Position numbers and translations under genes: made by a program
Virus record (IMG/VR): IMGVR_UViG_3300022871_000010
Length of the DNA stretch: 64,000 bases
Direction: 5' to 3' (one strand)
Source: a virus
Lineage: Duplodnaviria; Heunggongvirae; Uroviricota; Caudoviricetes
Notes under the pieces: model-generated
The model's database searches: none
Told to the model about the DNA's origin: nothing
Seen by the model: the letters and a program-made list of their open reading frames with translations, nothing else
Part shown: positions 14,540-43,826 of the stretch, one piece after another
Numbering within the stretch: position 1 is the stretch's first letter
Layout: the number at the start of each line of letters is the position of its first letter

Positions 14540-16738
14540 ATGACTCCGACTAATTTTCAGATATTAACTCCCAGTCAAATAAATATATTATCTTCACATG
14601 ATTTAATTAATAAACAAATAGATAAAGTTTTTAATAGAATCTTTAATGCTTCATCAAAAAAATTAGCCAGTATATTATTAACAGGTGATTATATTGATAT
14701 TAACATTTTATCATTCAAACCTAATTATGAAGCATTCATTAAACGAAATTCTGGATTATTTAATTCAATGGAATCAAATGGTACAACAATTTATTTATTA
14801 AATAATGATGTAGCTAAAAATTTACATACAGAATTATTAAAAACTTTACAAAAGATAGGTACAGCCATTGTAGATGCAGATGAAGATGATTCTGAAAAAT
14901 GGACTAAAAAACAAATTAATGGTCAAGAGTTTTATGAAGTTAATGAAGCAACAACTTTTCAAGATATAAGACAAATTCTTGGTAAGGAAGGAAAAAATAT
15001 AAATTTTCGTTATCCATTTAGAAAAGCTGATATGAAAGCAGCAGTGTTTGAGAATAAGAATACTCTACAAATGGTTAATGTACACATTAATAATGATGGT
15101 GAATATTTTGGTTACCCAGTAACTTATACATATATATGTCCTGAGTGTAGAGAAATCTTTACATGCCCGGAATATGAAACGAGTTCTAAGCAGGCTAATA
15201 AGATGGCTTGCACTGGAGAAGTAACTACTATAGATAGTCATAATGTAGAAAAATTAAAGAGATGTAATAATAGTTTAATTCCGGATAATAATAGGACTGA
15301 AACTAAAGACTCATTTATTTATGATGTATCATTCATTAATGAAGATGGTAATAATCAAAAGGCTGAAGCTATATCATTCATTCAATTACCCAAAGGAAAC
15401 ATCCGTGTAGTATTACAAAAGATACCTAGGGCTTTCGGAATACAATTAGTTCACATTGTAGATTATGAAGAAATAGAAAAGAAATCTTTAGAACTACCTC
15501 CAAGAAAATCTAAACATTATATGTTTGATTTAATAAAAGCTATAGATGATTATATTTTAAAAATAACCAATTATAAACATTATGGGTTTTTATCAATGAA
15601 GATGTCTATGCTATTACAATTTTTTGCTAGATATAATAGGGATATAAAAAATAATTATAACATGGCATTATCCGGGACTATGTCTTCAGGTAAATCTCAG
15701 TTCTCTAGATATTGGGGACTAACTTTATATTCACAAAGTTGTTGGAGCAGCAATGCAACAAGTATTAGTATACCAAAACTTCGTGGAACAATGGAATCAT
15801 TTCATTTGTTTGGTAAAGATTATCGTTATCAATATAAAGGTTTATTTGGAGAAAAAGATTTAATCATAATTGATGAAGTTAAAGAAGCCCCTGATGTAAA
15901 AAACAATTTGAAGCAGTATGCTTTAGAACCAACTTATGAATATTCCAAACAAGGAAGTAATAATCAAACTTATGAAAGAACCGCTCAATTAATAATTACG
16001 CAAAACATCGATACAAAACATTTGGATAGATATGCTAAGGCTGTACAGAAAATTTATATGTCCGACTCTTTAGTGGTTGATGATGAAAGCGTTGGGCCTA
16101 AACCAGCCTGGGGGTTTTCTGAAGATTTAACTCTGCCATTGTATGCTTATGCAAATCCTTATTTACAGTATGCAGTTCAAAAGGCCAGAGATGAATATGA
16201 AAGAAGTCAAATCAATTGGATTGATGGTTCTGAACTTGCACTGAAACAAAGGTTTTTCTTTTATTTTTATTTAAGTTCTGAAGAAAGCAATCATGAATTA
16301 AAAACAGTAATCCAGGAAAACAGTGTTAACAAAATTATATCAAACAACACAAACATTGTTAAATTAATGAATTGTGATAAGTTAGTTAAGTATGTTAAAG
16401 ACCAGGAACACTTGTTTGAAAATTATAATGATATAAAATATTTTAACAAAGTTGATGATATTTTAAAAACTTATAAGAAACGAAATGACGCAAGGACCAA
16501 AGAAATGGCTTACATGATAATTAAAATGTTAAGAATGATTGATGGGCGTAAAGAATGTAATGATACAGATTTAGAAATTTTTACTTACATTATAGAAAAC
16601 ATAGATAACAAAATAGAAATTATTAACACAAATAATTTTGTCATTAAAGGAGCGCACTCAGTGGTTTTAAAAGTAGATGAAAGAAACGCTGAAGATGACG
16701 AATGGGAAAACAATAACAATAAAGGAAACTTTTTTTAG
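14540..16738 (+). CDS. AAA+ replicative-helicase candidate (MCM-like or SF3/D5-like) with an N-terminal Cys-cluster zinc module (732 aa).
   Basis: Zn module ICPECREIFTCPEY...MACTGE...KRCNN. Walker A LSGTMSSGKSQF (MCM-type GKSQ). Walker B LFGEKDLIIIDEVKEA about 60 aa later. Sensor-1 / motif-C-like TAQLIITQN. Confidence 0.5.
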   Translation: MTPTNFQILTPSQINILSSHDLINKQIDKVFNRIFNASSKKLASILLTGDYIDINILSFKPNYEAFIKRNSGLFNSMESNGTTIYLLNNDVAKNLHTELLKTLQKIGTAIVDADEDDSEKWTKKQINGQEFYEVNEATTFQDIRQILGKEGKNINFRYPFRKADMKAAVFENKNTLQMVNVHINNDGEYFGYPVTYTYICPECREIFTCPEYETSSKQANKMACTGEVTTIDSHNVEKLKRCNNSLIPDNNRTETKDSFIYDVSFINEDGNNQKAEAISFIQLPKGNIRVVLQKIPRAFGIQLVHIVDYEEIEKKSLELPPRKSKHYMFDLIKAIDDYILKITNYKHYGFLSMKMSMLLQFFARYNRDIKNNYNMALSGTMSSGKSQFSRYWGLTLYSQSCWSSNATSISIPKLRGTMESFHLFGKDYRYQYKGLFGEKDLIIIDEVKEAPDVKNNLKQYALEPTYEYSKQGSNNQTYERTAQLIITQNIDTKHLDRYAKAVQKIYMSDSLVVDDESVGPKPAWGFSEDLTLPLYAYANPYLQYAVQKARDEYERSQINWIDGSELALKQRFFFYFYLSSEESNHELKTVIQENSVNKIISNNTNIVKLMNCDKLVKYVKDQEHLFENYNDIKYFNKVDDILKTYKKRNDARTKEMAYMIIKMLRMIDGRKECNDTDLEIFTYIIENIDNKIEIINTNNFVIKGAHSVVLKVDERNAEDDEWENNNNKGNFF

Positions 16739-16984
16739 GTGAAACAAATGGCATTAAGCGAAATAAAACAAAACATAAATAAATTAGAATCATTGGATAC
16801 AACAACTCTTATTAGATATATCAATGAATTATATTTACAAGAAAGAAAACAAACAAACAAAATTATTGGGTTACAAGGAAAAATTAAAAATTATAAAAGA
16901 AAAATATTAAAGGTTGTAACTTTATTAAACAAAGTGTTTGAAACAGAAGAACCAGTAAAGCTATGGAGAAAACAAAATGATTGA
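16739..16984 (+). CDS. Hypothetical small coiled-coil protein (81 aa).
   Basis: ORF abutting the upstream stop. Confidence 0.4.
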   Translation: MKQMALSEIKQNINKLESLDTTTLIRYINELYLQERKQTNKIIGLQGKIKNYKRKILKVVTLLNKVFETEEPVKLWRKQND

Positions 16985-17612
16985 AACCATTCCAGAACAG
17001 GACTTATCAAATATTAAAATTGTAACTATAGAGGATTTGTTGGTGTATTGTAAAAAAACCCTTACATTTTTTTCAAAAACTTTATTATTAAAACACGGGT
17101 TTACACCTGTAGAAATAAATATTCTTAATGGAATATATGACATGGAGATTAAAATGATTAACGAATTAGTTGAACAAAACTTAAAAAATAAGATTAAAAA
17201 CTTAACACTACAATTAAAAGACTGTAAGATTAAACTGCCACAAGTAGTTAAATCAAAAAATATTTTATCCTTTAATAAAACAAAGATGGGATATCAATGT
17301 ATTGCCTCTAGAGAAGGTAAAGATAAAACAACAAGAATACATAATAATTTTTGTTACATTGAGGACCTAGAATTAATGGAACAAATATTGAAAGAAGGAA
17401 CTACTAAAGAACATCCACAAATGGTATACAGAGACATTGTGGCAAAAATAATTAAGTCATATAACTTAAAATGTTCAGTGGATGCATTCAATGGTGGAAA
17501 AAATAGAAGTATGTATTATTTTGAAATATATTATTATCCACTAAAAGTATTAGAACATTTAAGAAAAGTTAAATTAAATAAGAGAGGAACAACCACGTTA
17601 ATTTACAGATGA
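16977..17612 (+). CDS. Hypothetical protein (211 aa).
   Basis: ORF only. Confidence 0.5.
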   Translation: MIETIPEQDLSNIKIVTIEDLLVYCKKTLTFFSKTLLLKHGFTPVEINILNGIYDMEIKMINELVEQNLKNKIKNLTLQLKDCKIKLPQVVKSKNILSFNKTKMGYQCIASREGKDKTTRIHNNFCYIEDLELMEQILKEGTTKEHPQMVYRDIVAKIIKSYNLKCSVDAFNGGKNRSMYYFEIYYYPLKVLEHLRKVKLNKRGTTTLIYR

Positions 17613-17899
17613 ATAAGACTAAGAGTGTAAAGTTCCAACGACTCGGGAAATATAACTGCAGAGTGCTTTCATTAAATGGGGCAATCTTTGGTTTAATAAA
17701 AAAGAGTAAAGTTGGCATATACTTTTATTGGGTATTCATTCCTGCAAATGTAAAGACCTTCGGGGACTTATGTTTTACAACAAGAAAAATTAGGGAAATC
17801 CACGACAAAGTTGTGGAGTGCCAAAAAAATAATAATGTAGTTATTGACGAACCAAACGAGTATGAATATTATCTTAAAGAAAAAAACGGTGAAATATAA
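17609..17899 (+). CDS. Hypothetical protein (96 aa).
   Basis: ORF with a 4-nt overlap to the upstream gene. Confidence 0.45.
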   Translation: MNKTKSVKFQRLGKYNCRVLSLNGAIFGLIKKSKVGIYFYWVFIPANVKTFGDLCFTTRKIREIHDKVVECQKNNNVVIDEPNEYEYYLKEKNGEI

Positions 17900-17900
17900 A

Positions 17901-19475
17901 ATGAAATGGTATGAATATAATAATATAGAAAGAAAAAAAGAAGTGTATGATAAACATACTACTGCGGACTTCTGGGACTGGTGGTCTGGTGGGGAACCTG
18001 CAGTTATGGAAGTTAGAATTATGAAGGATTATAAAGAAATTAAAAAATTTGCCCAATCAGTTAAATTACCTTTTTCGGCTAGTGGAGTTTATGTTAAGTC
18101 CGCTTATGAATTATCTTTTGTTATTAATAAATTTAAAGACACCCACACTATTTGGTTTGGTGCAAATCCTAAAAGACAAATTATAAGTCCTAGAGGATGG
18201 AAGACTTTTTCCGGGAAAGATATTGGTATAGATAAAATTAAATATTTGTTTATAGATATTGATAGAGTTACAAAAGAAGGTGCTGCATCGACTAAAGATT
18301 TGTTGAGTGCAGATTTTTTGGCTGAAAAGGTATTGGAAGAATTACACAAAAATAAGTTTGCCGAAAAATATTGTAAAATTTGTTCCGCTAACGGATTACA
18401 ATTATTAATAGAACTTGATGAACCAATAGTAATGCCCCCACTAGTATTAAATGATAAAGGAAAATATGAACCATCGCCTATTTTTGAACAGTACAAAAAG
18501 GTAATAAAAAATGGTATAGGTAAAGTGTTATGTAAATTTTCAAAAAAATTCAATGATGAATATAATGTAGAGATTGATTCAACAGGATTTAATATGGGAA
18601 GAGTTATGGCCTTACCTGGAAGCTTTAATTTTAAGCATGGTCTAAAAGTTCCTAGAGGACTTATTGAATTACGTGATGGAAAAAATAAAGGTTTTTCCGA
18701 TTACTTAATGGAGTTATTTAAATCAAAAAAAATTAAAACAAAAGTGCAGGACCAATACAACAATAAATCCGCTGAAGTAATGCTTAAAGAATATAACTTA
18801 GATATAACTAAAGCCAAACAAAACATTATAGTTAATTTAATGATGGATTATGAATTTCCAGACGGAGGAATAAATAATACTTTATGGTATGCACTAAAAA
18901 TATTATTGCACAACCAAGGAATTTGTAGAGACACAGAACACTATAATGAATTGCACAATATATTAAAAATAAAGCACGACAGAGCATTTCCGGATAATGG
19001 TTTAGAAACAGAATACTTAAATAATTATGATGGAACTTTCAAGAAGAACCATATTGATATGGTTCCAACCATAGTAAACAAATATCTTAGGTGCCACAAA
19101 ATAGTTAGGGATTCAGATAAAAAGGAACTATATTTAAAACCAATATTTCCAGTATCCCCTAATGGTAAAAGTAAAGCAAAAATACAAATACCTATAGACC
19201 CTAAATTGTTCAAGTATGATAAGACTGAAGCTTATGAATTAACAGAAGACACTAATGACTTTTTGTTTGATGTAAAAAAGTTAGGTAAAGAATTATTGTA
19301 TAGAGAATTATCAATACAACAAGCATCCACTATAGAAATGATTTTTTCTTCAAACACGGAGAGACAGATTGTTATAAACTTTTTACACAGTTTCAGAAGT
19401 AAGTGGGGGGACCACACAACAATTTATATGATGAAATATTATTTAGATGATTTTATCAATTACAAAAGATGGTGA
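17901..19475 (+). CDS. Archaeo-eukaryotic primase (AEP/PrimPol-like) domain protein. The start is revised to the internal ATG at 17901, which follows the SD ggtga.
   Basis: Motif I YLFIDIDRV (DxD). Motif II SANGLQLLIELDEP (sGnGlHh). Motif III NMGRVMALPGSFNFKHG (R..GS.N.K.G). Confidence 0.55.
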   Translation: MKWYEYNNIERKKEVYDKHTTADFWDWWSGGEPAVMEVRIMKDYKEIKKFAQSVKLPFSASGVYVKSAYELSFVINKFKDTHTIWFGANPKRQIISPRGWKTFSGKDIGIDKIKYLFIDIDRVTKEGAASTKDLLSADFLAEKVLEELHKNKFAEKYCKICSANGLQLLIELDEPIVMPPLVLNDKGKYEPSPIFEQYKKVIKNGIGKVLCKFSKKFNDEYNVEIDSTGFNMGRVMALPGSFNFKHGLKVPRGLIELRDGKNKGFSDYLMELFKSKKIKTKVQDQYNNKSAEVMLKEYNLDITKAKQNIIVNLMMDYEFPDGGINNTLWYALKILLHNQGICRDTEHYNELHNILKIKHDRAFPDNGLETEYLNNYDGTFKKNHIDMVPTIVNKYLRCHKIVRDSDKKELYLKPIFPVSPNGKSKAKIQIPIDPKLFKYDKTEAYELTEDTNDFLFDVKKLGKELLYRELSIQQASTIEMIFSSNTERQIVINFLHSFRSKWGDHTTIYMMKYYLDDFINYKRW

Positions 19476-19479
19476 ACGA

Positions 19480-19962
19480 ATGAGAACAGCAATATTTATT
19501 GATGGGCTAACATTATTTTATATGTTGGATGGTAAAAGAATTAACTTTGTTAATTTCAAGAAGTGGTTATTAGGTGAAGACACTGGAGTATATAATGCTT
19601 ACTTTAATAACATGAAAGAGGTTGATTCAAAAAACAAGTTTTTTTCTCACATAGAAAAATCTGGTTTTACCCTATACATTAATAAAATAGAGTTTGATTC
19701 TAGATTTAACAATAATGAACAAAAAAATATTGATATGAACATAACTATTGAAGCTCTTAAAAGAGTTAATGATTTTGACAAAATAATTATTGTTTCAGGA
19801 AAAAGCAATCTGTTACAATTATGTGAATCTTTAACGCTCCAGGGTAAACAAATACTTATTGTCGCCACACAAAAAAATATTAGTAAATCTTACAATAAAT
19901 ATGAAAAAAAGTATTTATCAGAATACTTTGAAACCCCAGAGGTGCTAATACATGAAATGTGA
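19480..19962 (+). CDS. NYN/LabA-like (PIN-fold) domain protein, a putative nuclease. The start is probably the internal ATG at 19480.
   Basis: N-terminus TAIFIDGLTLFYML. Core IIIVSGKSNLLQLCESLTLQGKQILIVAT (hhhVSGD.D..PL...L...G..V.V). Confidence 0.5.
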   Translation: MRTAIFIDGLTLFYMLDGKRINFVNFKKWLLGEDTGVYNAYFNNMKEVDSKNKFFSHIEKSGFTLYINKIEFDSRFNNNEQKNIDMNITIEALKRVNDFDKIIIVSGKSNLLQLCESLTLQGKQILIVATQKNISKSYNKYEKKYLSEYFETPEVLIHEM

Positions 19963-20501: not shown

Positions 20502-23500
20502 ATGTTAGATATAAAAAAATTAATCAAAAATAAAACCAACAGGGTAAACTTTGGTGGTCCTCTTTCTAAAAATTTAAACAAATTTAATCTAAAGGCTTTC
20601 GGTGGAAAGAAAGATTTAGATTTTGATGGAATACTTAACAAGTTTGATTGTAAACCAAAAAACACTATGAGACAAGATTATATTCCTTTCAAGCTGGCTA
20701 GTGCTTCTAAACTACCCCAAGTGCCTAGACATAAACAACATTTTCAAACAAGGTTTGAAAAGAACAAGGCACCTAAAAGAAAAATTTCTAAAACAAAATA
20801 TACACCCCCTGTTTCATTAATTAAAGAATTTTCTATGAATCCAACAGTTAAACGTGGGTCTTTAAATATTGGGCGTTGTGGGGATGCAGCTTCATGCATT
20901 GTTACAGACGCAGTAAATAGTGGAGTTCCAATGTCGGACATTGAAGTGTTTGGTGTAAGAGCACCTAATCTTAATAAAGGCGAAGATATTTATTCTAATC
21001 ATATGATAACTAAAGTTCAAGATAAATATTATGACCCAACCAAAACACAGTTCGGATATAAAGATAATGAACTAATAACTGATTCTATAGATTCAAGATA
21101 TAATACTCCAGTAATACAACCGACAAGTGCATATGTTAAAAAAGGGGCTTCATTAAAAAAACAAGATGAATGGGCTTATATGACAGGAGCACAAAAAGAT
21201 ATAGAACGGGCTGTATATATAGATACTGATGGGGATAGAGTCCCGGATGATTATGATTGTCAAATTAATAATACCATGCGCCAAGATTTCACACCATTCA
21301 AATGGGATGTAAATAAAGCTTCAAAACTTTCTGCAGCTAAAAGATTTGGTGGAAAGAACTTGGCAAAATTACAAAAGATAGGTTCCGGTAGAGATAGAAA
21401 TGTTTATGCTATAGATAAAGATAAAGTATTAAAGGTTGCTAAAAATCCTGGTGGGCTAACTCAAAATACTTCTGAATCAGATTTAGATTGGTTAACAGGC
21501 CAAATCAAACATTATGAAACTGGATTGGATTATGTAGTTATGGAACGAGCACAACCTCCAGGTAAAGCTACGGCTAAAATGATGAGACATTTGAAGAAAG
21601 CAAGAAGCGATACTAATATGATGCAGTCAGTTCATTCACAAAGAGCAGACTTTTTTAATTCTCCACACTTCGAAAAATCAGGTTTAGACGCTTCAGATTT
21701 TTCAAGCCATGATGTAAACCCAATGGAATTTACGGCAAGAAAACAGTGGGGAGAAAAAGATGGTCAGCCAGTACTTGTTGATGGAGGAGCATTAATGGGT
21801 GGTGATGATTTATCAAATCATAGAATTAAAGATTTTAAACAAAACGCTTGGCAACTTAATGAATGGCAAGATACTCAAAATCAACGTAAAGAATTTAAAC
21901 ATAAAGGTAATGTAAAAACCCACTATCCTAAAAGTAATCCAGTAGAAAACTTATCAAACTTCCCATTAAACAATGGTGCTTCTTTAGCTAAACAAAATGA
22001 ATGGAAAGAAATGTCTGGGGAACAAAGAGATGCTCAAAGACAAACCAGCCATGACACAGATGGAGATAGAGTCCCGGATGAATATGATTGTCAACCAGAA
22101 AATACAATGCATCAAGATACTAATATATATTTAAGTAAACGTAAAGATAAGACTAAACATTCTATGTATACATATAGTCCTACAAAAAATCAGATAAAAA
22201 AAAATACTAAAAACATATTTATTGGGTCAGAATATAAGAATGTTGATTTTAACAAACAACAAAATATAAATCAGTTGTCAGCAATATTAGGGCATGAAGA
22301 ACAACACAGTATTTTGGATGTAGAACATAATAGTGATACTTCCGCAAAGTTAGATAATATAGCCATTAAAACACTTTTTGTTGATTATGACGATGAAACA
22401 TTATTGTTAAACACATCTGTGCAACCAAAAGAAATTGTTGGTTATGCAAATAAAAATAAACATTGCGATGATTCAAAAAATGCTTTTAAATTTATCTTTA
22501 ATAAAGGTGCGTCATTACAAAAACAAAACGAGTGGAAAGAAATGTCTGGAGAACAACGAAACATTGTTAGACAATTCAAAGAAGACATAGACGGGGATAG
22601 AGTCCCGGATGATTATGATTGTCAACCAGAAAATACAATGCATCAAGATTTCAGTATATCCCCAGACCAGTATGATTTTGATAAAAAAGAATTTAAGTTT
22701 GATAATAAACGAAAAGTAGTTATGATGCCGGTTGAAGAATTATATCATAAACGTGGTAAATATAATTTAGGTGGAACAACCACGATGCAGGATGATTATA
22801 CCAAACGTAAAACGGTGGGCAAGAATATCACAAAAGCCGCCGGGAGACCTGCAACATATGATGAAGTAACAAAACATATGATTAAAAATCGTAATGAAGA
22901 TTTAAAACAACAAGGATATAAACCTTCACCACACAAATTAAATAAAGATGATAGTGTAACAATTAAGTATCGAAGGTCTCCACAAAAATATAAGTATGAC
23001 ATGGGAATAATAATGAGCCCAACAAATACTGATTCTGAACGGAGTGGAAGTCTTGGGGATTTAAAAATAGCCCAAGGAGCAAGTCGTAAAGAAGCAGGAC
23101 AGGCAGAAGTAATGTTTCACGCTAACAGTATGAGAGATGCAGTGATGAAAGATTCTGCAGAAGTCCCAATGATAACAGTTCATGGTTCAGATTTTAACCC
23201 AGGAGCAACTATAGGGGAAGGGAGACATAGAATCATTGCCGCTAAAGCCGCAGGATTAACAGAGGTCCCAGTGTTTATTGAACCAAATAATAGATTACCT
23301 GAAGGGGCTTTAGATAAGTATAGAGAATTATCTACTGATGAAATACAACAATTTTCTTCAGACCATAGAGTTCCAGGAAAAACCGTTAACACTAATAAAC
23401 CTAAAAACATAGAATATAAAGAATATGATAAGAGTTCTAAATTTAAACCAACTAAAGATTTTGATGTAGGCTATGATGAGTATGTAGATAAACGAACCCC

Positions 23501-23570: not shown

Positions 23571-23586
23571 TTAATGAGGAATAAAA

Positions 23587-25541: not shown

Positions 25542-25606
25542 TTCGTATACCTCATATTATAGTTTAATCAAAAAAAAATAAAAAAAAATAATAATTAAGT
25601 GTTAAC

Positions 25607-27149: not shown

Positions 27150-27222
27150 GGGCTCGTAGCATAACGGCTAATGCAGTCGCCTTGCAAGCGAAAGACTTTG
27201 GGTTCAAATCCCAACGGGTCCA
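27150..27222 (+). tRNA. tRNA-Ala (anticodon TGC).
   Basis: Cloverleaf read by hand: acceptor GGGCTCG/CGGGTCC with the G3:U70 Ala identity pair, D-arm GCAT/ATGC, anticodon loop CTTGCAA, T-arm TTGGG-TTCAAAT-CCCAA. No encoded CCA. Confidence 0.8.
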
Positions 27223-27509
27223 TTCATACCAGAAACAAAGACAGAACAATATAGCTAACATACGATGTTGTAAGGAAAACCAGGTACTCTGGCAACCTAT
27301 ATCTGTAGTCGCAACAGACTATCCTGCCAGGGGTAAATGAAATACAAGTAACGATGAGATTAGTAAATAATGAAAACTTTAAATGAACCTTTTTGGAATG
27401 TTTAATGTTGAGTAATTGTTTAAAATTGTTTGAGTCACTCAACTGGTTTCAAGGTTTATTGCTCTTTGCTGGATAAAGGTAGTTTCCGCCTAAAAGGGAA
27501 CATTCAATT

Positions 27510-27598: not shown

Positions 27599-27599
27599 T

Positions 27600-28774: not shown

Positions 28775-30943
28775 ATGGTTAGACAAATATCTTTTTCTCA
28801 AATGAATTTATTCTGGACTTGTCCTAAAACTTGGTACTTAAAATATATACAGAAAGTTCCAACCAAAGATAATTTAGTTTATGCTTTTAGAGGCAGTGTG
28901 GTTCATCATTGTTTAGAAACTTATTTTCCAAAAAAAACAATGACGATGGAAGAACTTAGACAGTTCTTTGATGATGAATGGAAAAAATATAAATTGTATG
29001 ATAGTAAATTACGTAATGCTAAAGAAGAAACTTGGCAGATGGTAATGAGAGGAGTAGATATTGGTTTAAATATTACAGATGTAGAATTAGCGGTTAGCTT
29101 TGATGATATCCGGGGCTTTATTGATGTTGTGGATAAAGAGAATTTAGAGATATGGGATTGGAAAACTAGCACTAGAAGTCAACATAATGAATTAGAATAT
29201 ATGGCCCAAGTAAAATTGTATGCATACTTGTATCACAGAAAGTTCGGAGTACTACCAAAATATACTGGAGTTAAGTATCTAAAGTATTCAGGTAAAGATG
29301 CATCGTTAGGTTGCGTTCCAACAATGGAAGATATAAAAATAGTTGGTCAATGGTTACAAAAAACCCAGGACAAAATGGAGTTCTATAAAAACAATGTTCA
29401 TAAGCTTCCAAGGTTTAATAAAGATTATTTCTTTTGTCCATACAAGCATCTGTGGGTTTTAAGTGATGAAGACACAATGGATTTTACTATAGAAGTTTAC
29501 GGTAATTTTATTAATGTTTCAGGAACTGACGAGTATCTTAATAATTATTTATATGATAAATATACTTATGAATTAGATGATGCAGTCGTTAAAGAAAAAA
29601 TGATTAAACGAAAGGCGGCAAGAAACAATAAAACCGTTAATATTAATTTAAGTAATACTAAAGTGCATTTGTGGGATAAATATAAAAAGCAAACATACAT
29701 AGGATTTTTGAATGCTGTAAAACAAACCTTAAATGATTATGCAGTAATAAAGAAAAAGAGCCCAATGATTCAAATTAAAGATATGAGAATATTTGATGAG
29801 ACTGTAGCGAAGATGCCAGAGAAACTTTTAACTGGAAAAATATTAATGGAACATCAAGATGCAGGAATTACATCATTCGTTAAAGAAGAACGAGGGTGTG
29901 TTGAAGCGGCAACTGGCGGCGGAAAGAGTTTAATTATTGCAGATTTTATTAGACGAAAACCTTTCAAGACATTAATAGTTATTCACACTAAAGAATTATT
30001 GTATCAGTTAAAGGACACTATAGAAGAAGAGCTTGGAGTAAAGTGCGGAGTAGTTGGTGATGGGGTTATAGATATACAACATATTACTGTGGCAACTATT
30101 CAAACACTTAATAGAAACTTAGGAGAATTTGCTGATTGGTTACAGTCAATAAGAAACATAATAATTGATGAAGCACATCATGCCGCCAGCGATAGTTATT
30201 TTAATTTGTTTACTAAACTAAAAAATGTTCAGTATCGTTTAGGAACCACAGCCACGTTTGATAGAGATGATGGCCACGAAATGAAACTTAAAGCCATTAT
30301 AGGAACTGAGGTATATTCTATAAAGAGTCAAGCATTAATTAAAAAAGATTTATTGATGAACCCAGATATTATGTTTATTAAGTATGAAGTACCTAAAGAA
30401 CAAAAAGAACTAATGGAACAAAAAGCTTTAGGGCAAAATATTAATCCAATACCAGAATACTTACCTTTCTATAAAACTAAAGTTATAGAGAATAATTTCC
30501 GTAACGCCCAGATACAAAAGATTGTAAATAAGCACGAGGACCAGTCAGTATTAATTTTAATAAAAAATATAGCCCACGGAGAACTATTAAATGAATTGAT
30601 TGAGGGGAGCGAATATATTAATGGAACTTCACCAAAAAAGTTCAGGGAAACAACCCTGGATAATTTTAAGAGTAAAAAACTTAGGGTTCTAGTATCTTCA
30701 GTAGGAATACTTAGTGAAGGGTTTAACATGCCGTCACTATCTATAATAGTTAATGCATCCGCCAACGTGGGGGATATTAAAACAGTTCAGATAATTGGGC
30801 GTATTTTGCGAAAACACAAGGATAAAACTATGGCAATATACTATGACTTTATGGACGAGGGGACATTCTTAGCTAGAGCTTCACTGGATAGAATGAAAAA
30901 ATTCAAGTCTGAAGGATATAAAATTAACTTAAACACATTGTAA
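28775..30943 (+). CDS. Nuclease-helicase fusion: an N-terminal PD-(D/E)xK (Cas4/RecB-like) nuclease joined to a C-terminal SF2 DEAH helicase (722 aa).
   Basis: Nuclease part has GFIDVVDKE...LEIWDWKTS (D...ExK-like) plus Cys residues (WTCPKT, FFCPYKH). Helicase motif I AATGGGKSL, motif II IIIDEAHHAAS, motif III LGTTATF, motifs V/VI VSSVGILSEGFNMP...QIIGRILR. Confidence 0.7.
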   Translation: MVRQISFSQMNLFWTCPKTWYLKYIQKVPTKDNLVYAFRGSVVHHCLETYFPKKTMTMEELRQFFDDEWKKYKLYDSKLRNAKEETWQMVMRGVDIGLNITDVELAVSFDDIRGFIDVVDKENLEIWDWKTSTRSQHNELEYMAQVKLYAYLYHRKFGVLPKYTGVKYLKYSGKDASLGCVPTMEDIKIVGQWLQKTQDKMEFYKNNVHKLPRFNKDYFFCPYKHLWVLSDEDTMDFTIEVYGNFINVSGTDEYLNNYLYDKYTYELDDAVVKEKMIKRKAARNNKTVNINLSNTKVHLWDKYKKQTYIGFLNAVKQTLNDYAVIKKKSPMIQIKDMRIFDETVAKMPEKLLTGKILMEHQDAGITSFVKEERGCVEAATGGGKSLIIADFIRRKPFKTLIVIHTKELLYQLKDTIEEELGVKCGVVGDGVIDIQHITVATIQTLNRNLGEFADWLQSIRNIIIDEAHHAASDSYFNLFTKLKNVQYRLGTTATFDRDDGHEMKLKAIIGTEVYSIKSQALIKKDLLMNPDIMFIKYEVPKEQKELMEQKALGQNINPIPEYLPFYKTKVIENNFRNAQIQKIVNKHEDQSVLILIKNIAHGELLNELIEGSEYINGTSPKKFRETTLDNFKSKKLRVLVSSVGILSEGFNMPSLSIIVNASANVGDIKTVQIIGRILRKHKDKTMAIYYDFMDEGTFLARASLDRMKKFKSEGYKINLNTL

Positions 30944-33954: not shown

Positions 33955-34010
33955 AAGCAGCATATGATGAAAATTAATGTCTAAAGCAATCCCACTATCT
34001 TTAGTGGTGG
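33955..34010. repeat. Copy 2 of the 46-bp IS-end-like element (atgaaaattaatgtctaaagcaatcccactatctttagtggtggga).
   Basis: Exact match to the reverse complement of about 350-398, including the codons MKINV*. Confidence 0.6.
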
Positions 34011-34106
34011 GAGTATCAAATATCTAAGAAGAAATTAGAATTAATAGAAGACAAATATAAAGAGCTTTACACTTCAGGATTTTTTAGACGAATTACAAGG
34101 GTTATA

Positions 34107-34202: not shown

Positions 34203-34241
34203 CAAAACATTTATATAGTTAAAGAATATATAGATATATAC
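34203..34241 (+). promoter_or_regulatory. Second copy of the 39-bp BRE/TATA promoter element.
   Basis: Identical to 30948..30986. Confidence 0.55.
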
Positions 34242-35210: not shown

Positions 35211-36107
35211 ATGAATGACATAAATAAAGTATGGACGGAAAAGTATAGACCAAAACAAATGAGCGATATAGTTGGTGGGTTTAAAGATGAAATAAACAAC
35301 ATGCTTAAAGAACCACAATTAATGCAGCACTTACTATTTCATTCAAGAAGCCCTGGAGTGGGTAAAACAACTTTAGCTAGAATAATATCAAAACAGTTAG
35401 AAGCAGATGTCCTGGAAATAAATTCTTCAGATGACAGAAGCATAGAGACTGTTAGAACTAAAATAATAGCTTTTGCGAGGACTAAATCATCAAACCCTAA
35501 TACGAGAAGGATAGTTATCTTAGATGAAGCAGATGGCCTTACAGGGATATCACAGAAAGCATTGATTAATCCAATGGAATCATATGTTCACAATGTATTA
35601 TTCATATTAACTTGCAATGATATAACAAAAATTATAGATACATTACAATCAAGATGCAATATCATAAATTTTGATAATCCCGATAGAGGAGACATATATG
35701 AATATTTAGTTAAAGTATGTAAACAAGAGAAAATAACATTTACAGAAAAAGGGTTATTTAGTATAATAAAATATAATTATCCAAGTATAAGAAATTGTAT
35801 TATAGCAATACAAAAGACAGTTATGAAAAAAGGAGTTGTCACAGAAGACTCTTATGAAATATTCAATGAACAACATGAACACATATGGAATTTAGTAACT
35901 AAAGAAAAAAATTATGAAGTTGTTAAAGATTTCATATTATCAATAGATATTAATATTAAACAATTAAACAATTATTTATGGGATAAAGCCGTAAAGACTT
36001 CAAACCCTAAATTAATAAAAATAACTTGTATGAACGAGATACTAATGTCCCGGGGAGCGGATGATAAAATAGTTTTTATTACATCGTTGTTGGAGATGGT
36101 TAAGTGA
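35211..36107 (+). CDS. rfc: Replication factor C small-subunit-like clamp loader (AAA+) (298 aa).
   Basis: RFC box II WTEKYRP. Walker A SPGVGKTTLA. Walker B ILDEADGLT. SRC motif LQSRCNIINF. Confidence 0.85.
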   Translation: MNDINKVWTEKYRPKQMSDIVGGFKDEINNMLKEPQLMQHLLFHSRSPGVGKTTLARIISKQLEADVLEINSSDDRSIETVRTKIIAFARTKSSNPNTRRIVILDEADGLTGISQKALINPMESYVHNVLFILTCNDITKIIDTLQSRCNIINFDNPDRGDIYEYLVKVCKQEKITFTEKGLFSIIKYNYPSIRNCIIAIQKTVMKKGVVTEDSYEIFNEQHEHIWNLVTKEKNYEVVKDFILSIDINIKQLNNYLWDKAVKTSNPKLIKITCMNEILMSRGADDKIVFITSLLEMVK

Positions 36108-36487
36108 TTTTGTTTAAACAAATAGGAAAATTGTTTTCTAGTGAATCCAGTGAATGGATATCAAAGCTAGAAAATAAACAAATTAGTCCTGTTGTTATTC
36201 AGAAGTATCTAAGCCAGTATCAAAAGTCAGAACATGTAGCTAGAGCTTTAAACGAGCATGTATATACATTACAGCCAAAACAGTATTTAAGTTTAGCCTG
36301 GAGCATGCTTTTTTGGAATGGAAAAAAATTAGCTAAAGCACCATTCATCAAATATAAAAAAGTAGAAACTCCACACACAGTTTCGCCAATGCAGAAACAA
36401 TTACATATGGCAACAAACGATTATTGTTTGCTGGACGGGCTATTAGATTATCAAGCACCACAAATTTTAGAGGTTAAAACAAAATGA
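36104..36487 (+). CDS. Hypothetical protein (127 aa).
   Basis: ORF with a 4-nt overlap to rfc. Confidence 0.45.
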   Translation: MILFKQIGKLFSSESSEWISKLENKQISPVVIQKYLSQYQKSEHVARALNEHVYTLQPKQYLSLAWSMLFWNGKKLAKAPFIKYKKVETPHTVSPMQKQLHMATNDYCLLDGLLDYQAPQILEVKTK

Positions 36488-38757: not shown

Positions 38758-38759
38758 GT

Positions 38760-39212: not shown

Positions 39213-39220
39213 TATAAAAA

Positions 39221-42200
39221 ATGATTAGAGAAAAAGAATATGTTTGTCCTCCAAATTTTGAGGATGTATTAATATACGATATAGAGACAGCGGCATTCGG
39301 GGATTCGCCTAATGCACAAAAAAATGATTTAAGAGTATTTGGGTATTATTCATTTAATACAGATACTCTAGGAACATTACCGTATTATGATAAAGAAGGT
39401 ATTCAGAAACTTATTGATGAACATAAATTCTTAGTAGGTTATAATAATATAGAATATGATAATCCAATATTAGAGAGAGAAGGAATTTCTTTAGAGTATA
39501 AACGAATGGTTGATTTGATGAAAATATTATTAAATAGGGCCGGCGGAATGAAAACAAATAAAGGAATGGTTGGGCAAGAACTATTAAGATATTCGTTAGA
39601 CGCAGTGACAAGATTCTTTGACTTAGTAAATGATGAAACAGCAAAAGGAGATTTAGATTATTCAATATTGAAAAAAACTAAATGGACTAAAGAAGAAAAA
39701 GATGATATAATAAAATATACTAAAAGAGATATTGAAATAACTAAAAAGCTTTATTTATTTATGGAAAAATATTTTGAAGGATTTAAAGACTTCGTTCCAG
39801 AAAAAGATATTAAAGGAAAATATTATTTAACTGACAGTATGGCAAAAGTTGTATACAAAGCAATATGTCACGCCCTTAAATGGGAACCAGAATATGATAA
39901 AGACTTCACTCCAGAACTTGCGAAAGATAGAATTGACGGCGGATATGTATCATACCCGGCTGGAGAAAAGTTTGTAGGAAATATTTATTGCCTGGATTAT
40001 AACAGCCTTTATCCATCAATTATGATGATGTGTAACCTTTACGGAAGAAACAAGACTACATTCAAAGGATGGAATGGTGATAACTATTTTGATGTAAAAG
40101 GGTTTTATGATAGTGAAAACCAAAGTGAAACTTCAGTACTATTACAAAACTTATATTTATTAAGAATGATGTATAAACGAAAACTATTATTAGAAGACGG
40201 ACACATCATTAAAATGATAGACAAAAAGAATGGGAAAAGTGTTTATGATTATATAGGACAAAAATATCATCACGTAAGTAAACACGCAGGTGGGCAGATT
40301 TGTTCCTCTTTAGAATTATTAACCAAAGCGCAAGCAGACCATTTCTATAAAATAACTTTAGAAGGAATGGACCCAAGAGAGTACACTATTAAAATAATTA
40401 TTAATTGCTTTGATGAGACAGGACAAGTAATGACCCCCGAAGGAATTAAGTATATCAAAGATTGCAAAGTCGGTGATATGGTTTATTCTATTAATCCAAA
40501 AAATTCATTATTAGAAGTAAAACCAATAATCGATGTAACTAAAAGAGAATACACTGGGAGTTTTCACAATTACAGAAGCAACGGATATAATTTTAGAATA
40601 ACCCCGAATCATAAGTTATTATTAAATAACAAACATCAAAAACAAGGCGACAGTGTATTTTTAAAATCTGTAAGTTTAAGAGACCAAAGAATTATTCCAT
40701 CCGCCAAACCTAATTTTCCGGAACAACCAGAATTTATTTATTTAGACGATGTATACCATGAAAATTTTATGGTAGCTATAAGACCTAAAGACAATGAACA
40801 ATTGTTTTTCACAGATAATAATTTAGATATTAATGATTTCAGGTACAGTACAGTATTGAAGGCATACATAATTAAATACAGTGAAATAAAAAAAACTTTA
40901 AGAACATTAGAAAATTGTGATATAAAATGTTATCACGAAGACACAATCATTAGAGATTGCAATGCAATGGATTATAAAATGGATAGAAAAACTTTTATGG
41001 AATTGATTGGATGGTTAATATTCAGAGGAAATATTCATAAAGTTAAAACATACACTACAATAAATCCTAGAACACTAAAAGTAAAAAAAGTTGCGGAAAG
41101 ACAGTTCATGACAATTAAAGGAACACATAGTTGGTCTGAAACAATAACAGTTAAAGCAATATTTGATTTGTGTAAATCTCTGGGGTTGCATCCAGTAAAA
41201 CAAGGAAAAATAATATTATGTCATAATCAGATTTTAGTAAATATGATGTTACCATATAAAGTTGACGACACCCTAATGAATTTAGAAGGGTTCCTAAAAT
41301 ATTTAGATGCTGAAACCGCGCACTTAATAATTAAAACGATGATAAAATTTTCTCAAGAAAATTCATCAACAGACATATGTGTTTGGGATGAAGGAGCAAA
41401 AATAGCAGTATGCAAACTTATAACTTTAGCTGGAGGAACTTTTGTTTTAACACCAAAAAAGAATTTTACTAGAATAAGAACATCTTTTGTTCCAACGCTA
41501 ATAGGACCAAAAAATAAAAAATCATATCAACACAGTGGACCAATATATAACATTCATGTAAAAGATAACCATACTATACTTGCGGGGAGCTATGGGAAAT
41601 TTAATTGGATAGGGCAAACATCCTACGGGATTTTAGATAAGAAGTACTACAAATTAGTATATGATAAAGTTGCCGCAGGAGATTGTACCAGATTAGCCAG
41701 ACAATGGGTTAAGTTAGCAAGAAAAAGGTTTAAGGCCGAAGGATACAAAATCATATATACAGATAGTGTAACTAAAGATATGAAAGTAACTTTACAGAAT
41801 GACGAACAAATAACGGTTGAAGAATACTGGAATAAGTATGCGGCAAATAAAGAGTTAGTTGCAGAAACAAAATTTAGACATGAAGACAAAGAATATGGTG
41901 ATTGTATCAAACCAATACTAACATGCAACGATTTATACAAGAACGAGTTTCAAACACCAGTACAAATAATAAGGCACAAGAAAGCTGATAGAATTTATGA
42001 ATTTCATACAGAATCAGGTAAAGTATTAAAATGTACAGCAGACCATTCAATAATAACATTAGACTTAGACACCATGCAATATAAGACAATAACACCAGAA
42101 GAAGCAAAAGAAGTAGGGTTTTTATTAATTGACGTTAGAACGCACGGAATGGCTCCTGATGATATGACTTTAGAGGAAGCAGATTTCACAATGGATGCAA

Positions 42201-43021
42201 TAGTTAAAACAGAAGAATATTTCGAGAATGATTATGTTTATGACTTTTCAATAGATGATTACGAAAAGTTCTATGCCAACGATGTATTAGTACATAATAC
42301 TGATTCATGGTATTTTGAAGATGTGTACGACGACCCACAAAGATTCCTGGAATTAAAGGACAAATTAATTGAGGAAATAAAAACACACACACCATTCCCA
42401 TCGGCAACATTTGATGCAGGAGTAGATGATGAAATTAAAGCAATGTTCTTTTTTCAAGCAAGAAAAGGTAAAGCTGCTAAAGAAGAAGATGAAAGCGAAT
42501 TAGATGATGATGACCGAATGTATAAACCTTTAGGCCTAATGAAAAAGAATTACATTTATGTAACCCAGAAAGACAAATTAGTATTAAAGAATTTAGGGAT
42601 AAAGAAAAAAAGTATCAGTGCATTATCTAAAAAGATATTTTGGGAATACATGGTTCCAATAATAAAGAAAGACTTTGTAGTAAAGTTTTCTAAAGTAAAG
42701 ATAGATAACTTAATGATTGAATATTTATCTGAAAATATAGAGTTAGCCTATATGAGAAAGAAAGTTAAATCATATGGGGCGTATAAGAAATCAAACACAA
42801 TAATTCAAGCACAGATAGCTAAGAAGTATGGCCCAGGAATACATTTTTTAATACCAAACAAAAGACATATTGGTGTTGGAAAAGGAGTAACTTATTGTTC
42901 AGACAAAGAATTCAAAGAGACAGGAATGAGCATAGCAGATATAGATTTAGAATATTATCGTAAAGAATTAGCTTATTTTGCAGTAGATAACAGACAACAA
43001 AAGTTGTTTGATATGTTTTAG
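39221..43021 (+). CDS. polB: Family-B DNA polymerase with a 3'-5' exonuclease domain, interrupted by two inteins. The extein is about 694 aa, or about 740 aa if intein 2 takes the shorter Cys-start boundary.
   Basis: Exo I IYDIETAA, Exo II YNNIEYDNPIL, Exo III YTKRDIEIT. Motif A LDYNSLYPSI. Motif B KIIIN-[intein]-SYGKF. Motif C GYKIIYTD-[intein]-TDSWYFE. KxY motif KKNYIYV. Confidence 0.85.
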   Translation: MIREKEYVCPPNFEDVLIYDIETAAFGDSPNAQKNDLRVFGYYSFNTDTLGTLPYYDKEGIQKLIDEHKFLVGYNNIEYDNPILEREGISLEYKRMVDLMKILLNRAGGMKTNKGMVGQELLRYSLDAVTRFFDLVNDETAKGDLDYSILKKTKWTKEEKDDIIKYTKRDIEITKKLYLFMEKYFEGFKDFVPEKDIKGKYYLTDSMAKVVYKAICHALKWEPEYDKDFTPELAKDRIDGGYVSYPAGEKFVGNIYCLDYNSLYPSIMMMCNLYGRNKTTFKGWNGDNYFDVKGFYDSENQSETSVLLQNLYLLRMMYKRKLLLEDGHIIKMIDKKNGKSVYDYIGQKYHHVSKHAGGQICSSLELLTKAQADHFYKITLEGMDPREYTIKIIINCFDETGQVMTPEGIKYIKDCKVGDMVYSINPKNSLLEVKPIIDVTKREYTGSFHNYRSNGYNFRITPNHKLLLNNKHQKQGDSVFLKSVSLRDQRIIPSAKPNFPEQPEFIYLDDVYHENFMVAIRPKDNEQLFFTDNNLDINDFRYSTVLKAYIIKYSEIKKTLRTLENCDIKCYHEDTIIRDCNAMDYKMDRKTFMELIGWLIFRGNIHKVKTYTTINPRTLKVKKVAERQFMTIKGTHSWSETITVKAIFDLCKSLGLHPVKQGKIILCHNQILVNMMLPYKVDDTLMNLEGFLKYLDAETAHLIIKTMIKFSQENSSTDICVWDEGAKIAVCKLITLAGGTFVLTPKKNFTRIRTSFVPTLIGPKNKKSYQHSGPIYNIHVKDNHTILAGSYGKFNWIGQTSYGILDKKYYKLVYDKVAAGDCTRLARQWVKLARKRFKAEGYKIIYTDSVTKDMKVTLQNDEQITVEEYWNKYAANKELVAETKFRHEDKEYGDCIKPILTCNDLYKNEFQTPVQIIRHKKADRIYEFHTESGKVLKCTADHSIITLDLDTMQYKTITPEEAKEVGFLLIDVRTHGMAPDDMTLEEADFTMDAIVKTEEYFENDYVYDFSIDDYEKFYANDVLVHNTDSWYFEDVYDDPQRFLELKDKLIEEIKTHTPFPSATFDAGVDDEIKAMFFFQARKGKAAKEEDESELDDDDRMYKPLGLMKKNYIYVTQKDKLVLKNLGIKKKSISALSKKIFWEYMVPIIKKDFVVKFSKVKIDNLMIEYLSENIELAYMRKKVKSYGAYKKSNTIIQAQIAKKYGPGIHFLIPNKRHIGVGKGVTYCSDKEFKETGMSIADIDLEYYRKELAYFAVDNRQQKLFDMF
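40406..41587 (+). mobile_element. PolB intein 1 (about aa 396-789), carrying a LAGLIDADG-type endonuclease, at the motif-B (pol-b) site. The C-terminal junction is non-canonical.
   Basis: Starts CFDETGQVMTPEGIKYIKDCKVGDMVYSI. LAGLIDADG-like LIGWLIFRGN and LITLAGGTF. Block F-like IYNIHVKDNHTILAG. No His-Asn immediately before the SYGKF that restores motif B. Confidence 0.6.
41765..42298 (+). mobile_element. PolB mini-intein 2 at the motif-C (pol-c) site. The preferred boundary is a Ser-1 start (aa 849-1026), giving the spliced motif YTDTDS. The alternative is a Cys start at 41903 after EYGD.
   Basis: Block A SVTKDMKVTLQNDEQITVEEY. Block B VLKCTADHSIITLD. C-terminus ANDVLVHN|TDS. Confidence 0.65.
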
Positions 43022-43032
43022 GTGATAAAAAA

Positions 43033-43323
43033 ATGGAGATAAAAAAAATGAATTTTAAATATATGAGTTTTGTAATAGTTTTAATAATAATAGCAATGTT
43101 TGGCACGAATTTAATTATGGGTTCAGCGGACGATTACACATATTGTGAAGTTGGAAACATGATAAATGGCACAAACGGAGAACCTTCATATTGTGACATT
43201 GGAGAATATGGAACAACAGAGGTTTCTTATCATGATGATAACATTAAAATACTTATGTTATTACCAATGTTTATGATTATATTGGCGGCATTTTTAATGG
43301 CTAATGTAGTTGTTGGAGAGTGA
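43033..43323 (+). CDS. Small membrane or secreted Cys protein (96 aa).
   Basis: Hydrophobic helices at both the N- and C-termini. CEVG...YCDIGEY. Confidence 0.45.
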   Translation: MEIKKMNFKYMSFVIVLIIIAMFGTNLIMGSADDYTYCEVGNMINGTNGEPSYCDIGEYGTTEVSYHDDNIKILMLLPMFMIILAAFLMANVVVGE

Positions 43324-43826
43324 AAAATACAATGGTAAACACAATAGGAATAGATGGTGGAGTTAATGGTGGGATTGTAGTATTAGATGAAAACAAACAA
43401 ATAATATTTAAAACAATAATGCCTGCGATTGGAAAAACAAGAAAAGAATTTGATATTAAAGCACTATATATAATATTAAGAGGATTCTTTGATGCAGACT
43501 TAATTATAGAAAAAGCACAACCAAGATATAGAGATGGAAGTAAATCAGCATTCAAAACAGGATTCGGTTATGCAGTACTTCAGTCTTTAGCCATAGCATT
43601 ACATATGCCTTACAGAATAGTACCTGCTAAAGAATGGCAGCAACATATTTTTAAAAGTAAAAAAGTAGAAAATACAAAAACATCAAGTATAGTATTTTGT
43701 AAAAAAAAGTGGAAAGACGAAAAATGGCTTAGAACACCAAGATGCCAAAATGAACACGATGGAATGACAGATGCAGCATGCATAGCATATTATGGGATGA
43801 TAACTAAAGAGGTAGACAAAAAATGA
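43320..43826 (+). CDS. RuvC-like Holliday-junction resolvase (RNase H fold) (168 aa).
   Basis: N-terminus TIGIDGGVNGGIVVLDEN and C-terminus HDGMTDAACIAYYG match the RuvC/A22 catalytic D...E...D(A) pattern. Confidence 0.55.
   Translation: MKNTMVNTIGIDGGVNGGIVVLDENKQIIFKTIMPAIGKTRKEFDIKALYIILRGFFDADLIIEKAQPRYRDGSKSAFKTGFGYAVLQSLAIALHMPYRIVPAKEWQQHIFKSKKVENTKTSSIVFCKKKWKDEKWLRTPRCQNEHDGMTDAACIAYYGMITKEVDKK

Follow-up and report, generated by a model that had tools for sequence, protein, structure and literature searches.

A divergent archaeo-eukaryotic replication and recombination module on an AT-rich element, probably a large tailed virus of an uncultivated archaeon

The stretch of 64,000 nucleotides from the IMG/VR record IMGVR_UViG_3300022871_000010, referred to here as the window, raises the question of what kind of genetic element carries its own archaeo-eukaryotic replication proteins at 29% GC, and in what kind of host. 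An original prediction had described positions 14540-43826 as a self-contained archaeo-eukaryotic replication and recombination module on an AT-rich mobile element; this description was borne out, and eight of the ten genes that it listed lie where it had placed them. In our reading, the window is probably the replication and recombination half of a large double-stranded DNA virus (at least about 100 kb, 29% GC) of an uncultivated archaeon, and this virus is probably a tailed one with a contractile tail. The positions of the features discussed are collected in Table 1.

The helicase gene has 35 homologues at 40-57% identity, in addition to a near-identical copy of itself. An AlphaFold model built from 26 homologues (predicted local distance difference test, pLDDT, 82) was compared with the PDB by Foldseek, and MCM2-7 subunits accounted for 50 of the 50 top matches (E 1.6e-19 to 1e-17, about 580-800 aligned columns). 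No MCM domain was found by Pfam, which returned weak P-loop matches below threshold (AAA_14, DUF5906), and the family profile had zero matches among PDB sequences, the protein being MCM-like by its modelled fold only. Across the 26 homologues, the cysteines C200, C203, C224 and C242 are invariant and could form the MCM zinc module, and the Walker A (GTMSSGKS, G379-S386) and Walker B (IIIDEV, D445/E446) motifs are conserved or invariant. This gene had been described as an MCM-like or SF3-like AAA+ helicase with a zinc module; the MCM assignment and the zinc-type cysteines were retained, and the SF3/D5-type identity was rejected, because the fold search gave MCM only.

The predicted primase, of the archaeo-eukaryotic primase (AEP) superfamily, had no matches in Pfam, PHROG or PDB sequence searches and belongs to a small family, with 103 clusters among 1.84 billion representatives. 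Its AlphaFold model reached a pLDDT of 87, and the top 50 matches of the PDB fold search were AEP-superfamily proteins or complexes containing them (best E 6e-5), including the LigD polymerase domain, RepB', eukaryotic and archaeal PriS, and PrimPols. The conserved motifs of the family are FIDID, SGNGVQL and D...RVxALPFTxNxK, with D132 (in FIDID) invariant in 32 sequences and D239, P252, N256 and K258 invariant or nearly so. Motif II reads SANGLQ in the window, where the family consensus is SGNGVQL, and the usual nucleotide-binding His is replaced by Gln throughout the family. An AEP primase had been proposed here, and both catalytic motifs I and III and the AEP fold were found.

The sliding clamp was recognized with a profile made of the window protein and its homologue from a syntenic relative, which matched A. 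fulgidus PCNA (1rwz) in the PDB at 5.1e-7 over residues 20-231 of 233; PCNA or sliding-clamp chains made up 30 of the remaining 31 matches. The clamp ends in LVAPYV, and its gene lies directly upstream of the loader gene, so that both the profile match and the adjacency agree with the predicted PCNA-like clamp immediately upstream of an RFC loader. The loader translation contains EKYRP, GVGKTT, DEAD and SRC motifs, and its matches comprise yeast RFC4 (4e-37, the best), archaeal RFCS (1.6e-35) and T4 gp44 (2e-26) in the PDB, and phrog_168 (6e-54) in PHROGs. Thus, the RFC small subunit with a KYRP box foreseen at this position is supported by the EKYRP motif and by yeast RFC4 as best match. The loader also shares 30-34% identity with the gp44 proteins of many T4-like phages. 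It is the one RFC-like gene in the window, and the 127-aa (amino acid) open reading frame (ORF) downstream of it, whose position is conserved in the related contigs L015, L034, L035 and L046, had no family match in Pfam or PHROG and may possibly be a second clamp-loader subunit.

When its inteins are removed in silico, the family B DNA polymerase (PolB) shows the exonuclease motifs Exo I-III (DIE, NNIEYD, YTKRD) and the polymerase motifs A-C (DYNSLYPS, KIIIN/TSYG, YTD/TDS; slashes mark splice junctions), and D20, E22, D80, D170, D259, D444 and D446 do not vary among 34 homologues. Intein 1 (residues 396-799, 404 residues) is found inside motif B; it starts with Cys, its excision restores KIIIN/TSYG, and it appears to end with Gln (...NWIGQ/TSYG) instead of the usual His-Asn. 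Intein 2 (residues 849-1026, 178 residues) is found inside motif C, with the form S...HN/T. The unspliced ORF matched Pfam Intein_splicing at 1.3e-15, and PolB signals were weak in profile searches. In the comparison of the PolB family profile with the PDB, Thermococcales PolB was best (1.6e-22), Pol alpha was also matched, and T4 and RB69 polymerases were absent among the 60 matches listed. Additionally, BLAST of the spliced PolB against 50,697 phage genomes, a database that includes haloarchaeal tailed viruses, gave no match at E 0.1. An intein-containing proofreading PolB had been predicted; Exo I-III and the intein stood, the number of inteins being two rather than one.

Around these genes lies a set of predicted recombination and processing enzymes. 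The NYN nuclease and the Cas4-like nuclease-helicase fusion had both been foreseen, the former being found by Pfam and the latter having PDDEXK_1 (1.9e-21), ResIII (5.5e-19) and Helicase_C (2.9e-10) domains together with a phrog_16 match (1.3e-73); the position of the fusion relative to clamp and loader is conserved in L015 and L034. The RuvC-like resolvase, likewise anticipated and matched in PHROGs, has acidic residues where expected (IGIDGG, IEKA, HDGMTDA), which would make up the catalytic tetrad of a resolvase of the RNase H-like type, and a RuvC-like gene immediately follows PolB in L013, L015 and L022. Two further genes of the original prediction were misplaced within 14540-43826: the glutaredoxin-like redoxin is real and lies beyond this interval, and no Orc1/Cdc6-like ATPase was found on the other strand there, the sole initiator-like candidate being a minus-strand P-loop ATPase encoded upstream. 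This ATPase holds three mini-inteins (residues 94-240, 298-429 and 474-605), the first with junctions of the form C...SN/T and the two others C...HN/S, and after splicing it matches phrog_5484, a DnaA-like initiator, weakly (4.8e-5).

The organization of the window points to a prokaryotic host. Minus-strand genes extend leftward from 13238 to 378 and plus-strand genes rightward from 14153 as far as the window end, in long co-directional arrays, and both the coding strand and the sign of the GC skew switch at about 14 kb, in the divergent intergenic region. Same-strand neighbours are separated by a median gap of 2 nt, with 69 of 102 pairs overlapping or lying at most 10 nt apart, and a Shine-Dalgarno core (GGAG, GAGG, AGGT, GGTG or GTGA) was found at -16 to -5 for 69 of 106 starts (65%), versus 8% of internal ATGs. 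Shine-Dalgarno motifs at this frequency, together with such tight gene packing, argue for a prokaryotic host, and therefore prokaryote-like translation signals leave almost no room for a eukaryotic giant virus.

As regards transcription, AAANNTTTATATA occurs nine times in the window against 1.3 expected, a count reached in none of 100 shuffles, and eight of the nine copies precede genes and are correctly oriented, among them those ahead of the PCNA gene (34205-34217) and on both sides of the 13.2-14.2 kb region. We take this motif to resemble the archaeal B recognition element (BRE) plus TATA box, a likeness and not a proof, and the TTTATATA boxes are candidate archaeal promoter boxes; the archaeal promoters that had been predicted find support in this enrichment and placement. 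The 13.2-14.2 kb region also contains several 22-bp palindromes (AGTGACTGTATATACAGTCACT) and is a candidate replication origin and control region.

The relatives of this element also point to a virus. More than 250 homologues of the spliced PolB were found in metagenomes, on contigs of up to 183 kb (35-57% identity among the 120 listed), and PolB homologues were found on 38 IMG/VR contigs of up to 116 kb. One PolB relative is a closed circle of 95.6 kb flagged as viral by VirSorter, and the GC content of the relatives sampled, whose PolB is at least 27% identical, is 24-42%, mostly near 30%. The order nuclease-helicase, PCNA, RFC, small ORF, PolB, RuvC is conserved in the close relatives L015, L034, L035 and L046. 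In L046/L150, whose PolB is 49% identical and whose nuclease-helicase, PCNA, RFC and PolB follow the same order as in the window, a 466-aa protein encoded on the converging strand matches 162 phage records (best E 7e-8), those listed being annotated as tail sheath. This gene is followed by small ORFs and then by a 515-aa plus 1458-aa pair, similar in size and position to the 484-aa plus 1408-aa pair that closes the minus-strand block of the window. The products of this pair are putative proteins of the virion or tail, and homologues of the 484-aa one number only three. A more distant subgroup, represented by L042 (PolB about 32% identical), encodes a portal and an HK97-type capsid protein, the latter matching Haloarcula hispanica tailed virus 2 (2e-11) and no other of 50,697 records of phages and archaeal viruses. 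An attempt to link the portal of the distant relatives to the closer large contigs failed, the closer contigs that were checked being absent among the 80 portal loci kept. Because the relatives have a sheath, a portal and a halovirus-like capsid protein, the lineage is read as tailed viruses with archaeal affinities.

The same element was found in several independent metagenome assemblies, on contigs of 50-88 kb, and about 88 kb of it were examined, comprising the window together with L006, L010 and L024. It is contained in SRR7527650, SRR7529099, ERZ27316076, JGI 3300023292 and JGI 3300022890; the JGI sample numbers may belong to the Ace Lake series (Antarctica), a text search for these numbers having given no result. 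The left flank of the window contains an IS200/IS605 element and encodes proteins of 767 aa and of 2568 aa (Laminin_G_3). The N-terminal part of the latter matches virion structural proteins of several viruses (best, a Nitrosopumilaceae spindle-shaped virus, 2e-14); to the right, up to about 77 kb (L006, L024), only small unannotated ORFs were seen. Core chromosomal genes, named in the original prediction as the sign of a chromosomal region, were absent from these 88 kb. Since no core cellular genes were found and the replication proteins are too divergent for host copies, the window is not a chromosomal region. Metabolic, conjugation and partition genes were likewise not found.

An archaeal host is suggested by the MCM helicase, by a PCNA whose best match is archaeal, by an RFC closer to archaeal and eukaryotic proteins, by the PolB profile, by the BRE/TATA-like motif and by archaeal labels among the homologues. 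Nothing supports the methanogen-type host that had been envisaged, and the organism names attached to homologues are limited to 'Candidatus Pacearchaeota archaeon' and 'archaeon'. One bin label gives a weak lead to a DPANN host, and the similarity of one structural protein gives an equally weak lead to a Nitrosopumilaceae host. The host was also sought through TnpB in 185,579 species genomes, the sole close match being a mis-binned contig of 1.7 kb that held no host clue.

Several observations weigh against an archaeal tailed virus. No capsid, portal or terminase gene, for which the original prediction had advised a search, was found in the about 88 kb; a portal and a capsid protein were seen in the distant L042 and a sheath in L046/L150, in relatives and not in this genome. 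Searches of Pfam, PHROGs, PDB sequences and tblastn with the 1408-, 484- and 767-aa proteins and the smaller minus-strand ORFs gave no matches, and the minus-strand genes of the window, including the 484-aa and 1408-aa pair, have no detectable sequence similarity to the L150 tail genes and pair. The archaeal host is read from promoter-like motifs and protein affinities, as no CRISPR spacer, integration site or tRNA intron pointing to a host was found and the odd second tRNA has no clean archaeal-type intron. One relative contig was binned in a giant-virus metagenome-assembled genome (MAG). Finally, a RuvC-type resolvase and the order of clamp, loader and PolB are also typical of T4-like phages, to whose gp44 the loader is 30-34% identical. 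The last point leads to a different explanation, a large bacteriophage of an AT-rich bacterium (for instance of candidate-phyla or Firmicutes type) with a T4-style replisome, in which DnaB and DnaG were swapped for an MCM-like helicase and an AEP primase. The order clamp, loader, small ORF, PolB indeed mirrors 45-44-62-43 of T4, and the strong Shine-Dalgarno motifs, the IS200/IS605 element and the match of the relative's tail sheath to bacterial myophages would fit such a phage. However, the spliced PolB found no counterpart among the phage genomes, its family profile favours archaeal and eukaryotic PolB, and PCNA and RFC score higher against archaeal and eukaryotic proteins than against those of T4. 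The recurrent upstream motif is BRE/TATA-like, the capsid protein of the distant relatives matches a haloarchaeal virus only, and the labelled homologues are archaeal. Therefore, we judge a bacteriophage unlikely.

The absence of capsid, portal and terminase genes from the 88 kb could also be expected of a non-viral, self-replicating extrachromosomal element of an archaeon, such as a megaplasmid or a small Borg-like element, and the two divergent single-strand gene blocks with intergenic tandem-repeat arrays are reminiscent of Borgs. Borgs are linear elements of 0.6-1 Mb with long terminal inverted repeats, metabolic genes derived from Methanoperedens and pervasive tandem repeats. In contrast, the contigs of this lineage measure 80-130 kb, far less than Borgs, one relative is circular, neither metabolic genes nor a conjugation or partition system was found, and tandem repeats are restricted to a few intergenic regions. 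A sheath in syntenic relatives, a portal and capsid in more distant ones, and the giant adjacent protein that matches virion structural proteins also argue against a non-viral element, as do features typical of viruses, namely numerous very small ORFs, tRNA genes and genes for polyvalent-like proteins (described below). We therefore regard such an element as quite improbable, and of the three options that the original prediction had left, large virus, megaplasmid or Borg-like element, the large virus fits best. The low GC and the relative in a giant-virus bin would be accounted for if the window were a fragment of a eukaryotic giant virus (Nucleocytoviricota), and PolB inteins, PCNA, RFC, RuvC and glutaredoxin also occur in giant viruses. 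This origin is nevertheless highly improbable in view of the Shine-Dalgarno frequency, the short same-strand gaps and long co-directional arrays described above, and no hallmark genes of giant viruses were found.

Considering the preferred reading of an archaeal virus, an order of replication events can be proposed, each step of which is drawn from the known roles of the protein families. The initiator-like AAA+ ATPase would act at the 13.2-14.2 kb region, with its 22-bp palindromes and TGGCT repeats, whereupon the viral MCM hexamer would be loaded and would unwind the DNA. The AEP primase would then synthesize primers, and the RFC-like loader, perhaps with the small ORF product encoded downstream, would open the PCNA trimer and set it on primer ends, where PCNA would tether the proofreading PolB. 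The Cas4-like nuclease-helicase, the SF2 (superfamily 2) helicase, the NYN nuclease and the RuvC-like resolvase may process ends and resolve branched concatemers or recombination-dependent intermediates before packaging. Activity of PolB and of the initiator-like ATPase would require the prior splicing of their five inteins.

Comparable systems have been described. Magroviruses (Magrovirales, Aoguangviridae), putative viruses of Poseidoniales (Marine Group II), have genomes of 90-100 kb with about 31.5% GC, in which replication and morphogenesis clusters are oppositely transcribed and PolB, AEP primase, PCNA, RFC-S, MCM and ligase are encoded (PMC10768690, PMC5434244); their PolB groups with halovirus and T4-like PolB (PMC7544198). 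The window element resembles them in its size, low GC, two opposed blocks and own PolB, AEP, MCM, PCNA and RFC (PMC10768690, PMC5434244), and also in replicative proteins that are mostly too divergent for ordinary searches. However, on the published descriptions of magroviruses, by which the two were compared, several differences set it apart: an ATP-dependent ligase, a RadA-like ATPase, a single-stranded DNA-binding protein, a chaperonin and a DnaQ exonuclease were not found in the window; its PolB is encoded by one gene, interrupted by two inteins and not split as in some magroviruses, and has no BLAST similarity to the phage database that includes haloarchaeal tailed viruses; it has a RuvC-like resolvase and five inteins; and its relative has a tail sheath, which aoguangvirids lack. 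Large tailed viruses of haloarchaea, with genomes of about 100 kb and upward, such as the HGTV-1 type and the 109-kb DHTV-1/-2, also encode MCM, primase, PolB, PCNA, RFC and tRNAs (bioRxiv 10.1101/2025.02.15.638363), but these are GC-rich and infect halophiles, whereas the window element, at 29% GC, was recovered from metagenomes of cold saline lake, marine and sediment origin, and PolB similarity between them is undetectable.

With T4-like phages, the element shares the order of clamp, loader and polymerase, the KYRP and SRC motifs of the loader at the identity given above, many small early-type ORFs, tRNAs and a redoxin. In contrast, its helicase is MCM and not the DnaB-like gp41, its primase is AEP and not the DnaG-like gp61, its clamp profile finds PCNA and not gp45, and its resolvase is RuvC-like and not endonuclease VII. 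We class the element as a new, widespread and deeply divergent lineage among large archaeal tailed viruses with near-complete replisomes, itself a known class. Since magroviruses and large haloarchaeal viruses share this design, the design is known and would not surprise specialists; the expectation that the element was undescribed thus holds for the lineage and not for its design.

Table 1. Positions of the features discussed, with the evidence for each (a dot in the strand column marks the intergenic region)
Feature	Position	Strand	Evidence
484-aa plus 1408-aa gene pair, far end of minus-strand block	378..6061	-	same pair in L020/L021; no family matches
Initiator-like P-loop ATPase, 355-aa extein, three mini-inteins	8387..10687	-	Intein_splicing 1.7e-33, four stretches; phrog_5484
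SF2 helicase, XPB/UvsW-like, 410 aa	11161..12393	-	Helicase_C 1.8e-20, ResIII 5.7e-19, ERCC3_RAD25_C 5e-11
Divergent intergenic region, 914 bp	13239..14152	.	outward-facing BRE/TATA motifs, 22-bp palindromes, TGGCTTTTTTTGGCT repeats
Divergent MCM-family replicative helicase (by fold), 732 aa	14540..16738	+	fold match; N-terminal OB domain, four-Cys zinc module (putative), AAA+ core
AEP-superfamily primase or primase-polymerase, 537 aa, helical C-terminal domain	17862..19475	+	motifs and fold
NYN-domain nuclease	19447..19962	+	Pfam PF01936, 9.8e-14
tRNA-Ala(UGC)	27150..27222	+	ARAGORN; Rfam 63.5 bits
Cas4-like PD-(D/E)XK nuclease fused to SF2 helicase (ResIII/Helicase_C)	28775..30943	+	Pfam, PHROG
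PCNA-family sliding clamp, 233 aa	34255..34956	+	two-sequence profile
RFC-small-subunit-type clamp loader ATPase, 298 aa	35211..36107	+	motifs, PDB, phrog_168
Conserved 127-aa ORF, start overlapping loader stop	36104..36487	+	conservation of position
Family B DNA polymerase with 3'-5' exonuclease	39221..43021	+	1266-aa ORF: 684-aa extein plus two inteins
RuvC-like Holliday junction resolvase (predicted)	43320..43826	+	phrog_1770 3e-22
Glutaredoxin-like redoxin	46062..46385	+	Pfam Glutaredoxin 3e-07

Further features were observed in and around the window. Its first 377 positions begin within the IS200/IS605 insertion sequence (IS), whose TnpA and TnpB extend leftward (L010), and several assemblies break at this IS. 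A 27-nt hairpin of the IS end (GCAATCCCACTATCTTTAGTGGTGGGA), beside the 1408-aa gene, is repeated in inverted orientation at 33986-34012, in the intergenic region of 33.8-34.25 kb, where it may be a solo IS end or an insertion scar. Tandem repeats comprise a 37-bp unit in 3.4 copies at 12463-12589, within the minus-strand block, and three arrays (12.4, 6.9 and 7.9 copies) of a 14-bp, CTATATGTTGTAAC-like unit in a non-coding block of 2.5 kb at 49484-51975 (about 25% GC), which also holds further A/T-rich repeats and a 219-bp duplication. This block is a candidate alternative origin, packaging site or regulatory region. Near-identical cassettes of 90-160 bp were found three times (52207-52368, 53602-53752 and 55793-55884), each ahead of an unannotated gene and each composed of a T-run, an inverted repeat (GTGTTACTTTAATAGATACTACAAAGTAACAC) and ACGAAAGGTTTATATATAAGC; they look like terminator plus strong-promoter units.

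Among the proteins, one of 1022 aa, which together with the next ORF occupies 20502-24456, contains a kinase-like stretch, and a calcium-binding-like motif (variants of DTDGDRVPDDYDCQPENTM[RH]QD) occurs in it four times. Its C-terminal ParB-like nuclease motif (GEGRHRIIAAKAAG) is shared by the 289-aa ORF after it, and this pair resembles the 'polyvalent' injected proteins of phages. Two minus-strand ORFs at 24918-26254, opposite to the surrounding plus-strand block, have a secreted or membrane-anchored look and are not ATPases; the N-terminal segment of one of them, a 215-aa protein, recalls SipW-type signal peptides, and a homologue 51% identical to this protein is encoded on a contig binned in a giant-virus MAG (L033). 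Additionally, the distant PolB relatives L013, L022 and L023 carry PTPS (QueD) and GTP cyclohydrolase genes (type I in two, GCHY-1 family in L013), with a TGT-like protein beside PolB in L013 and L023 and an ATP-dependent ligase in L022. The PTPS, cyclohydrolase and TGT-like set suggests 7-deazaguanine DNA modification in those relatives; neither these genes nor the ligase were found in the window.

Besides tRNA-Ala, the window contains an odd tRNA-like gene of 91 nt at 27509-27599 (Rfam tRNA, 39.7 bits), to which ARAGORN assigned a 6-nt anticodon loop (GG) and a 21-nt variable arm. An archaeal intron was considered for it and was not used as evidence, since no clean bulge-helix-bulge was seen and any excision of 5-25 nt leaves an anticodon stem of at most 4 bp. 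The same odd gene was found at 1008-1096 of L032 (JGI Ga0222694_1000134, 18,995 bp, 30.6% GC), a separate element from the same sample as the window virus, with identical anticodon and variable arms and near-identical D and T arms. The acceptor stems of the two copies differ in a fully compensated manner (TGGGGCA/TGCCCTT in the window, GCAAGTA/TACTTGC in L032), and therefore the gene looks like a functional structured RNA. L032 encodes a protein-primed PolB (PF03175, 6.7e-68), a HerA/DUF87-type ATPase, a BppL_N-like protein and a transglutaminase, and a 130-aa gene is 85-90% identical between it and the large virus (L006, 18861-19265). L032 may be a small virus with protein-primed PolB, or a satellite, of the same host.

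Taken further, these observations allow a broader proposal, which we advance only tentatively and consider possible rather than probable: an undescribed clade, at the level of family or order, of contractile-tailed archaeal viruses of about 100-180 kb, widespread in marine, Antarctic-lake and saline-sediment metagenomes, with their own divergent MCM, AEP, PCNA, RFC and PolB, infecting AT-rich uncultivated hosts such as DPANN or Nitrosopumilaceae, with L032 perhaps a small virus or satellite in the same community. If this is true, the 85-90% identical gene and the odd tRNA-like gene common to L032 and the large virus hint at virus-virus interaction or co-infection. Metagenomic relatives of the lineage number in the hundreds, and no representative has been cultured or named. 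As standard annotation misses the MCM and primase of this lineage, similar elements are probably under-counted or mis-binned, and the labels carried by relatives here include Pacearchaeota, Rhodobacter and giant virus. The five inteins held by two replication genes, one of them ending in Gln, and a primase family with Gln in place of the motif II His represent testable biochemical oddities. Large archaeal viruses with their own replisomes, of which few lineages are known, bear on the movement of MCM, PCNA, RFC and PolB between viruses and cells.

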